A stretch of DNA of 23,544 nucleotides, taken from the UHGV virus genome UHGV-0332110; one strand, written 5' to 3'. This stretch comes from a virus. The translations under genes were made by a program, and so were the position numbers. Positions 1-6,602 of the stretch are shown here, one piece after another (within the stretch, counting starts at the first letter, position 1; each line of letters opens with the position of its first letter). Under the pieces are notes generated by a model. That model searched no databases, was not told where the DNA came from, and saw only the letters and a list, made by a program, of their open reading frames with translations.

Positions 1-2470
1 CAGATTTGTCAAAAGTCTGCCCCTGCATCAGGGCATAACCAGACGGAACGGTATCTGATGGCCACGGGATTGGTGCACCGACTGGATAAAACTCTGCAGG
101 AGGATGAGCCGAGGTGTAAAGCTGCGCCCACGGCGACCAGTTTGCGTCGGTCATATCCCGTCGTGAACGAATAAATGCCGGAGCATGAGCACCGCTTGTA
201 CCACTCCAGCCGATGAGTAACTCACCTTCGCCAACGGCTGTCATCCCTTTCAGGTGAATGATATTTCCATACGCTGTTGGATATCCGTTGTTATACACCT
301 CGTATAACTCAAGACCTGTTGCCCCCTGTGTATTGTCTGTCAGCGCGGTTACCCGACCTTTTGAAGACAGATTAACTGATGATACTGCTGTTCCACCTGA
401 CGGTAACGCCCCGATCTCTGATGCCGTTGGCTTATTTCTGGAGTTATAGTCCCTTCGCCAGCCAGGTGAATAATCTGTTCCGTGATTAATATAGGTAAAC
501 TGGGCGTTAGTTGTTCCACCACCAGTGGAGGTGGTCGGTGTGGTAATGCGGATCGTCATCGCTGACTTTATCCCCATTACTTCAATGACAGCTCCGGCGA
601 GATGAATATTACCGCAGCCAGTATCAGTAATGATTTTATTATTGCCATAAGACCAGGAACCCTTGCACATCCAGTATGGATGGTTAAATGCTCCCTGAGA
701 ATCCAGCCACTCGATAAACTGTGCAGTCGTCCAGTTTCCTGTTGTTGTGCTTACTGACCCACCGAAGGCACGGCAGGCACCAATATTTTTCGTAAAGGTG
801 TCTTTGCCAGGGATATCCGCACCGTTCTGATCTTTCTGCAGACGTTTCTCAGCATTGTCATTGGCTGCTTTTACTGCCTTTGGCGTTGCCGCCAGCGTTT
901 CAGACGTGCTGTTGGTCGCGCTGCTTAGCTGGATTATCCCTTTCTGTGCTGTCGTTGCATCCTGTGCGGTGTATTTCCCGTTAGCCAGGTCATACGCGGC
1001 CTTAACGGCTTTTGGCGTTGCCGCCAGTGACTCGGAAGTGCTGTTGGTCGCACTGCTGAGCTGTACTATCCCCTTTTTCGTCGTGCTCGCATCCTCAAGC
1101 GCCACGGCGGATGTAATATCCTCTGCCCGTTTTGCCGCTGTCTCAGCGCGCGTTGCTGCAGATTCCGCCGTACTTTTGCTCTGAGCTGCTGCCGTCGCAC
1201 TGCCAGCTGCCTCTGTCGCCTTCGTGGATGCCGTCGTGGCGCTACCCTTCGCTGCTGACGCCTGTCTGGTCGCCTCATCTTTTGAAGCAGACGCAGATGA
1301 TGCCGATGACGACGCCGAACTGGCTGACGATGCGGCAGCCGTTTTTGAGGATTCTGCGCTGGTTTCCGACGCTTTCGCGTTCGTTTCGGATGTCTTCGCT
1401 GCGGAAGCTGACCTCGCTGCTGCGCTGGCCTGTTCAGTGGCTTCGCCAGCCTTCGTTGTGGCTGTTGAAGCGGATGATGCGGCGCTTTCTGCCGACTTTC
1501 CGGCAGCGGTGGCACTGGCTGAGGCCTGCCCGGCACTTGTTGACGCGGCACTGGCAGACGACGCAGCCGCTGTTTTTGAGCCTGCCGCAGCTGAGGCGCT
1601 CTGTCCCGCTGCCGTCTCAGAAGACCTGGCGTTCGTCTCGGACGTTTTTGCCGCCTTCGCGGAATTTGCTGCCGCCGTTGCCGAGGAAGCTGCGCTACTG
1701 GCGCTCGAGGATGCGTTCGTTTCTGATGATTTTGCCGCCTCTTTTGAAGCCGACGCATCCCGGGCTGAGGTGGCAGCTTCTGACGCTTTCGTAGTCGCGG
1801 TGGATGCAGAAGTGGCTGCTGATTGTTGTGACGCTGCCGCATTCGTTTCTGACGTTTTCGCGGCACTGGCACTGGTAGCTGCCGCGCTTTTTGAGGACTC
1901 TGCAGCGGCAGCACTTTTTTCCGCTTCAGTGGCCTTTGTTGATGCCGTTCCTGCGCTGGAAGACGCTGACTGAGCCGACGAAGCGGCCTGTCCGGCTGAC
2001 GTGCTGGCTGCGCGTGCTGAGCCTGCAGCATCAGTCGCATGGGTTGCCGCCTCACGGGCAGATGTGCCGGCATCGCCGGCTGACTTCTTCGCGGCTGCCG
2101 TGTTCTGTGCCACCGCGGACGCGTTACGCGCCACCTCTTCCACCATCAGTTCAAAACGGCGCAGAGCCTCAGGACGGGCATCATCCTCCGTCATGGCACC
2201 GAGAAAATCATTCAGCGTACCGGGTCGGGAATCTTCATACACGGTGATGGTCCCGGCATGTGACGGCGGGAATCCTTCCACCAACAGAATAACGCTGTAC
2301 TGACCGTACTCAACGTCCATGCTGTAACGCCCGGCTTCATCCGGATTTTCTGAGGCCAGCGTGTTCACCACCACCGCGGTGCTGTTACGTTTTGCTTTCA
2401 GCTGGATTGTGCAGTTCTGTACCGGTTTTCCTGTGCCGTCTTTCAGTACACCTGAAATCTTTACTGCCAT
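1..2470 (-). CDS. stf: Side tail fiber protein Stf, N-terminal ~823 codons; 3' end lies beyond the window start
   Basis: ATG at 2470..2468 (minus) with GGGG-rich SD upstream. Translation begins [30 protein letters not shown], as I recall for lambda Stf. A long Ala/Ser/Thr/Glu-rich shaft follows, then two tandem fiber repeats ([26 protein letters not shown]) and a conserved [26 protein letters not shown] motif at the window edge. The ORF track lists no stop-terminated minus ORF starting at 2470, consistent with an open frame to the edge. The listed 1066..2073(-) and 1224..1973(+) ORFs are other frames of the same GC-rich repeat DNA. Confidence 0.85.
868..1079 (-). repeat. Two tandem ~135-bp imperfect copies encoding the phage tail-fiber repeat motif inside stf
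   Basis: Plus-strand 878..945 (cctttggcgttgccgccagcgtttcagacgtgctgttggtcgcgctgcttagctgg...) recurs at 1013..1079 with a few substitutions. On the minus strand each copy encodes KGI(V/I)[11 protein letters not shown](S/T)[11 protein letters not shown]. Confidence 0.8.
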
Positions 2471-2534: not shown

Positions 2535-3134
2535 TCAGAACTTATAACCGACACCCACGATGAAACCGTCAGTGCGCCAGTCACCACTGCCGGAGCCTTC
2601 ATAAGCAATATCAATGGCCACGGATTCGGTCGGGTTAAACTGCACGCCAGCCCCCCACGCCAGAGACGTGTTGCTGTGGCGACCGTCATCACTTCCGGTC
2701 AGCACATCGTGCTTTTTCCCCTTGTTGTCAGTTACGCGGAGATAATCCCCGGAGAAAGTCGACACACGGCTGTAAGCCACACCCGCCATCGCATACGCGC
2801 TGAACCATTCATTCACGCGCACAGACGGCCCCGCCATTACGCTGAACCAGCGGTTACGAACGGAATCTTCATGCCAGCGGGTATCGCTGTAACGGGTAAT
2901 CTGGCGATTCTTGTCTCCTGCATAGCTGAACGACGTCACCATCCCCAGTGTGTCCGTAAACTCATAACGGTATTTCACGTTAATCCCGTTCAGATCATCA
3001 CTGCCGGGAACGTTCGTCCGGGCATGAAGATACCCCGCGCTCAGCGTGGACTGATGTTCAGACGCCCATGCAGGCGCACCGGATACGGCCAGACAAATGG
3101 CTGCGGACAAAATGGCGGCATAAAGTTTACGCAT
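2535..3134 (-). CDS. lom: Lom/Ail/PagC-family outer-membrane beta-barrel protein (moron gene)
   Basis: 199 aa with an N-terminal signal peptide ([24 protein letters not shown]). The C-terminus [28 protein letters not shown] ends in aromatic-X-aromatic like an OMP and matches lambda Lom as I recall it. The N-terminal half differs from lambda Lom. Position between J and stf is as in lambda. Confidence 0.85.

Positions 3135-3200: not shown

Positions 3201-6602
<3,402 letters not shown>

Follow-up and report, generated by a model that had tools for sequence, protein, structure and literature searches.

A predicted lambda-type side tail fibre with two knob-like domains in place of the lambda distal coiled coil

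The window, meaning the whole stretch of 23,544 nt of virus genome UHGV-0332110 that we analyzed, begins with one uninterrupted minus-strand reading frame of 823 codons, which spans positions 1–2470 and runs off the start of the window. Over these 2470 bases the sequence matches a prophage of E. coli 30EVA1 without a single difference (100% identity). In this identical genome the full-length protein has 1007 aa, of which the window codes for aa 1–823, i.e. the N-terminal 82%. A preliminary description of the window, made from its letters alone, had placed the receptor-binding tip and the tfa chaperone gene outside it, and the last 184 aa as well as tfa were indeed found in 30EVA1; the Tfa product matches Pfam Caudo_TAP with 146.9 bits. 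Directly upstream of the fibre gene lies lom (2535..3134, minus strand), the gene of an Ail/Lom outer-membrane protein, and beyond it J (3201..6599, minus strand), which codes for the central tail fibre or host specificity protein of 1132 aa. Both were assigned from the ORFs of the window and the annotation of the identical genome, which together give the gene order J-lom-stf-tfa with J, lom and stf on the same strand. The remainder of the window holds a lambda-like set of head and tail genes. In 30EVA1 a GGDEF gene, ybhB and bioA come after tfa, and the prophage is therefore located at the lambda attachment region, on its bio side. Judged by its sequence, the gene at 1–2470 is the lambda-type side tail fibre gene (stf) of a lambda-like prophage.

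As reference for the comparison with lambda we reconstructed an Ur-lambda Stf of 774 aa, fusing the two lambda frames across the known frameshift. According to the cryo-EM/AF3 model of Ur-lambda Stf, residues 1–91 make up StfN, residues 92–101 a linker and residues 102–393 a trimeric proximal coiled coil; the distal half comprises a hinge (aa 394–422), a distal coiled coil (aa 423–525) and then a gp37-like receptor-binding part (PMC12617516). We observed that the window DNA is collinear with lambda and 87% identical to it from upstream of the start codon through aa 303. The N-terminal tail-attachment domain (aa 1–134, 2069..2470, minus strand) is ~90% identical to lambda Stf and is matched by Pfam PF08400 (phage_tail_N) over profile positions 1–134 of 134 (238.7 bits, cutoff 26.6, E 2e-71). 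Its residues 1–91 are the counterpart of lambda StfN, which in the Ur-lambda structure forms the collar on the tail (PMC12617516). At aa 102–460 (1091..2167, minus strand) lies an Ala/Ser/Thr/Glu-rich proximal coiled-coil shaft, as judged from protein alignment and blastn against lambda; within it the alignment with lambda Stf reveals an expansion of 105 aa (aa 304–408, 1247–1561, minus strand). Long alternative-frame and antisense ORFs are also present in the shaft-coding DNA, and we treated them as composition artefacts. The distal shaft shows 79% DNA identity to lambda, and the distal shaft together with the fibre repeats following it 79–83%. Two such repeats are matched by Pfam PF03406 (Phage_fiber_2, E 3e-37). 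By regular-expression search the first copy lies at aa 466–490 (1001..1075, minus strand), at the start of the equivalent of the lambda hinge, and the second copy, which lambda and phage PhiR29_1 do not have, at aa 510–534 (869..943, minus strand). Both match the single lambda copy, with 79 and 83% DNA identity, respectively. The lambda-type N-terminus and shaft and the duplicated fibre repeat, all recognized in the preliminary description, are thereby borne out.

Downstream of the second repeat the DNA homology to lambda breaks off sharply at aa 534/535, and a second sharp break lies at aa 797/798. Between them (aa 535–797, stf nt 1602–2391, window 80–868) neither the DNA comparison nor the protein alignment gave any homology to lambda Stf, and the homology returns exactly at the motif GAPIPWPSD (aa 798–806), with 87% DNA identity from there onward. 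The segment had beforehand been estimated to reach from about 86 to 860, with a conserved motif returning at the window edge, which agrees well with the measured span; in the alignment with the rebuilt lambda Stf the segment is not collinear, and the claim of a mosaic fibre stands. The part of lambda that is replaced comprises aa ~394–528, that is the end of the hinge and the distal coiled coil, and the segment therefore lies in the middle of the fibre and not at its distal end. For this reason the label ‘distal domain’ that it had been given has to be dropped: it is a gp37-like needle, collinear with that of lambda, that forms the distal end. The lambda-type distal coiled coil (lambda aa 423–525) is absent and two globular domains occupy its place, which makes the protein an Stf variant that still belongs to the lambda-type Stf proteins. 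Both natural junctions, one after the fibre repeat and one before GAPIPWPSD, coincide with the engineered fusion points R393 and S528, which gave working lambda-P2, -K1F, -K5 and -KL106 Stf chimeras used for DNA delivery (PMC11338833), and they enclose the hinge and the distal coiled coil of the Ur-lambda structure (PMC12617516).

The window ends within the collar domain, whose start (aa 798–823, 2..79, minus strand, GAPIPWPSD...) gives a partial Pfam Collar match that is cut by the window edge; in the full-length protein Collar scores above the Pfam cutoff (42.9 bits). Over its last 210 aa the full-length protein can be aligned with the T4 gp37 tip from one end to the other (2XGF, E 2e-86), and the matching part lies almost wholly outside the window. 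Compared with Ur-lambda, the J-lom-stf-tfa locus, the N-terminus, the coiled-coil shaft, the fibre repeat, the collar, the His-rich gp37-like needle and tfa are all alike. In contrast, the shaft is 105 aa longer, the repeat is doubled and two knobs replace aa ~394–528, and the tip loop is much shorter than that of lambda and unrelated to it in sequence.

The first of the two globular domains, here called knob A (aa 544–690, 401..841, minus strand), is an alpha/beta domain containing Cys566, Cys602 and Cys619. It is followed by the beta-rich knob B (aa ~700–790, 101..373, minus strand), which ends in W..WAQLYTS and is supported by its DNA match to the K-12 Qin prophage, its match to P1 Sv' and PHROG tail-fibre families. 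In an AlphaFold2 monomer model knob A reaches a pLDDT of 80–93 and knob B of 65–77, and the linker between them (aa ~685–715) is of low confidence and disordered. The preliminary description had characterized the whole segment as containing several Cys. The Cys motifs it quoted are present, with GACRAFGG at aa 564–571, a second quoted motif at aa 599–612 and DTGCGNIHL at aa 616–624, but the 823-aa fragment holds only Cys20 and the three Cys of knob A, and these three are confined to the first half of the non-lambda segment.

Knob A matches residues 178–334 of the phage Mu G(-) fibre S' (PDB 8JU3) in sequence, with ~80% identity (E 1e-77), and in fold. This structure is reportedly the one described by Mori et al. 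in Virology 593:110017 (2024; cited in PMC11915804). Furthermore, knob A is 81% identical to residues 215–358 of P1 Sv', and its DNA is 73–78% identical to P2 H (78%), to the S' genes of Mu and D108 and to S of P1, P7 and D6. Mu S', P1 Sv' and P2 H share knob A with the protein studied here; however, they are myovirus baseplate fibres with other N-termini and other C-terminal receptor-binding domains. Knob B DNA is 98.9% identical to the stf remnant of the K-12 Qin prophage, which adjoins nohA, and the knob B protein shows 64% identity to residues 47–153 of P1 Sv'. In K-12 Qin StfQ knob B, collar and needle are nearly identical to those of the window's Stf, but Qin keeps only the part of stf from inside knob B onward, and its tip loop is of another type. 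P1 Sv' carries B and then A, in reverse of the order found here, and Qin, Mu and P2 each have just one of the two knobs. A reading of aa 535–797 as one single module was ruled out by this reversed order and by the lone knobs. Of the swapped middle module that had been proposed at the outset, the mosaic relative to lambda was confirmed, but it consists of two cassettes and not of one; aa 535–797 are two independently shuffled cassettes, and the two knobs are separable as such.

Other fold matches are weak and include the C-terminal region of T4 gp34, R-pyocin fibres, phage K gp144 and further fibre knob domains. Foldseek with the monomer model, which is of moderate confidence, gave 4UXG (E 2e-3) and 6CL6 (E 4e-2), and PF21446 (Gp34_trimer) reached 19.1 bits on the isolated module, which is below the cutoff of 27 and was not used for classification. 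The likeness to the T4 gp34 and R-type pyocin knobs thus stays below family thresholds. The same set of relatives has been reported for R-pyocin knob domains (PMC6116203). We classify A and B as knob-like domains whose firm relation is to 8JU3 only.

Next, we compared seven Stf proteins that all share the A+B architecture, namely that of the window and those of mEp460 (mEp460_ev081), PhiR26_1, PhiR68_2, PhiR42_1, PhiR29_1 and the ‘Salmonella phage’ SPF_0923. The six phage records have the same full architecture, and their DNA is 96.5–97.8% identical to the window over the fragment; the first five are phages that have been propagated. Segment by segment the seven proteins are 93–100% identical (98.6–99.3% in knob A and 95–99% in knob B), with two exceptions. 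One is PhiR29_1, which has a single fibre repeat where the window's Stf has two. The other is the stretch between the His-rich blocks of the tip, where the tip loops of the set fall into three unrelated types. Moreover, the C-terminal parts of mEp460 and PhiR34_1 are 99% identical and their middle cassettes are different, and the window's protein has its cassette in common with mEp460 but not its tip. A shared tip with another module and a shared module with another tip show that module and tip assort independently. The comparison places recent diversification among close relatives at the tip, outside the window. The segment had initially been regarded as a sign of host-range diversification, which the comparison does not bear out: the knobs are 95–99% identical across seven Stf proteins with three tip-loop types. 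Independent assortment together with tip variation fits a structural role of the knobs, and the A+B module is most likely a shaft or spacer segment and not a host-range determinant. However, A+B might also be so well conserved among relatives because they bind a ligand that is itself conserved.

Taken together, we consider it probable that the Stf is intact and functional, that the knobs are structural and that specificity resides in the tip loop outside the window. Four trimeric Stf fibres per virion speed the adsorption of Ur-lambda through the outer-membrane receptor OmpC (PMC12617516), and by analogy with Ur-lambda we infer that the protein studied here would likewise trimerise, with its N-terminal domain docking on the tail just above the tip of the tail. 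The Ala/Ser-rich coiled coil would form a proximal shaft 105 aa longer than that of lambda, and the fibre-repeat region with its doubled repeat would act as a hinge. Knobs A and B, replacing the lambda distal coiled coil, may trimerise and space the distal arm and in this way set its length and stiffness; knob domains such as those of T4 gp34 and R-pyocins have been proposed to aid trimer folding (PMC6116203). The distal arm would end in the T4-gp37-like, His-rich needle, presumably folded by the Tfa chaperone, and the tip loop would reversibly bind an outer-membrane receptor, so that adsorption could be faster before J engages its own receptor. The finding that the tip loop and not the knobs varies among close relatives may guide which part to swap when retargeting such particles.

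A different role of the knobs has to be weighed against this structural one. The A/B pair might form an additional receptor-binding site on the side of the fibre, e.g. for sugars of the LPS core or the O-antigen, so that a swap of the middle would change host range and the fibre would attach at two points together with the tip. Knob-like domains do occur in saccharide-binding fibres, and Knob2 of the R-type pyocins has been proposed to contribute to target or surface binding (PMC6116203); in addition, Mu S' and P1 Sv' carry knob A in their variable parts, which switch host range, and several alternative cassettes fill this slot among lambdoid Stf proteins. However, knob A does not form the distal end of the Mu S', P1 Sv' and P2 H fibres, in which C-terminal domains differing from phage to phage come after it, the conserved A+B module is combined with different tips, and what lambda has in this place is a plain coiled coil (PMC12617516). 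We therefore regard a lateral binding site as unlikely, and a version in which both knobs form a conserved site on the side of the fibre, e.g. for a conserved sugar of the LPS core, as a shade less likely again. If such a second site existed, attachment would be two-point, by knob and gp37-like tip, in the way that has been proposed for R-type pyocin fibres, and host range would be tuned through the choice of the middle cassette without regard to the tip. Far less probable is that the gene is a decaying, functionless prophage remnant, comparable to stf of laboratory lambda, which carries a frameshift, or to stfQ of Qin, which is truncated. It is true that lambda Stf is dispensable for plaque formation (PMC12617516) and that K-12 Qin holds truncated remnants of exactly this module, but no stop interrupts the 823 codons of the window, the gene of the identical genome codes for all 1007 aa and is followed by an intact tfa, the lambda-like tail genes of the prophage are complete, and near-identical genes occur in phages that are propagated on hosts. 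An intact fibre with structural knobs is the reading that we retain.

Closely connected with this is the question of how the knobs came into the slot. In Mu and P1 the homologous region sits in an invertible segment, and the module studied here might accordingly lie within a segment switched by Gin, Cin or Pin, with the fibre alternating between two C-terminal halves; the homology of knob A to Sv' sequences encoded by the invertible segment and the Pin-type recombinase genes located after tfa in mEp460, PhiR34_1, PhiR68_2 and PhiR42_1 speak for such an arrangement. However, neither the annotated P1 cixL site nor a Mu gix sequence gave a match in the window at up to 3 mismatches, and the AAACCNNGGTTT core was not found in stf. 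Downstream of tfa in 30EVA1, where the GGDEF gene and ybhB follow, there is neither an invertase gene nor a further, inverted stf/tfa pair. An invertible segment was ruled out on these grounds, and we give it a probability close to nil. With neither a cix/gix-type site nor an invertase, homologous recombination at conserved linkers is the more likely route. In the Stf of PhiR34_1 the same left and right junction motifs enclose an unrelated cassette of ~350 aa, and at the right junction a knob ends in W..VYTS, followed by the conserved junction motif; since these motifs can thus flank another cassette, the slot appears to be a recombination site with several alternative fillings. Recombination of this kind between lambda and the stf-tfa regions of Qin and Rac has been demonstrated experimentally (PMC3945230), and homologous recombination at the conserved junction motifs is the most likely way in which the knob cassettes were exchanged.

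Mosaicism of lambda stf, T4 gene 37, Mu S/S', P1 S/S' and P2 H has been called ‘a well documented case’, with Montag 1989, Haggard-Ljungquist 1992 and Sandmeier 1992 credited for tail-fibre mosaicism (PMC3945230). The gene at 1–2470 is a common, already annotated allele and a tail-fibre mosaic of this long-known kind; it carries little weight as a discovery and illustrates textbook mosaicism among the tail fibres of lambda, Mu, P1, P2 and T4. The module itself is not unusual: of 5426 complete E. coli genomes, 800 contain A+B with at least 80% query coverage, strain W and ST131 isolates among them, and the whole 2470-nt fragment is at least 80% covered in 662 genomes. Seven phage records likewise cover the fragment to 80% or more, and their annotation reads side tail fibre or tail fibre protein. 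With the module as protein query, 716 relatives were retrieved, in contexts with P2-H-type (PF12571), gp37_C (PF12604) or Collar domains; among the genera they come from are Photorhabdus, Xenorhabdus, Yersinia, Edwardsiella, Enterobacter and Acinetobacter.

The two knobs of the mid-fibre module, A (aa 544-690 of the window Stf) and B (aa ~700-790), behave as independent shuffling units, because their order is reversed in the Sv' fibre of phage P1 (L004:2790-4347): there a knob B homologue (aa 47-153) lies upstream of knob A (aa 215-358), whereas the window Stf carries A before B. In the Qin prophage of E. coli K-12 the stf remnant (L006:3001-3273), which has a DNA identity of 98.9% to window positions 80-352, starts inside knob B and adjoins nohA directly; the truncating deletion in Qin stf had its endpoint inside knob B. 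The gp37-like tip has two His-rich blocks, and the loop that joins them lies outside the window (8700-8850 in L001, the prophage of E. coli strain 30EVA1, and equivalent positions in L002 and L007-L011); we observed at least three unrelated types of this loop among Stfs with the same A+B module. The loop of the 30EVA1 prophage is much shorter than that of lambda. Fibre-repeat copy number is likewise variable among close relatives, since the 964-aa Stf of PhiR29_1 (L011:1495-4395) has a single fibre repeat instead of two but is near-identical elsewhere.

We also regarded the genes beyond the tfa chaperone gene. In mEp460 (L002:8745-9335), PhiR34_1 (L005:6572-7162), PhiR68_2 and PhiR42_1 (L008 and L009, both at ~5245), the next gene after tfa encodes a serine recombinase of the PinQ/PinR type; 30EVA1, PhiR26_1 and PhiR29_1 have no such gene after tfa. 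No second, inverted fibre gene was seen beside the recombinase gene in the stretches examined. In strain 30EVA1, whose prophage is 100% identical over window positions 1-2470, a GGDEF-domain gene is found between tfa and ybhB/bioA (L001:9682-11013; outside the window, just past its start). It occupies the slot of the lambda b region adjoining the attachment site and may therefore be prophage cargo. The 35-kb record ON032529.1 (L010), labelled as Salmonella phage SPF_0923, contains an stf that shares 96.5% identity with the E. coli gene, and has the transporter gene sitD in a flanking position; the record may therefore represent a prophage segment cut out of a genome, not the genome of a packaged phage.

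Three further ORFs overlap the Ala/Ser-rich shaft DNA of the window: one of 335 aa on the minus strand (1066-2073, in a different frame from stf) and two of 249 aa (1224-1973) and 220 aa (1132-1794) on the plus strand. All three are most likely artefacts of composition; a comparable antisense ORF, ‘orf206b’, is annotated over the corresponding region in the lambda record.
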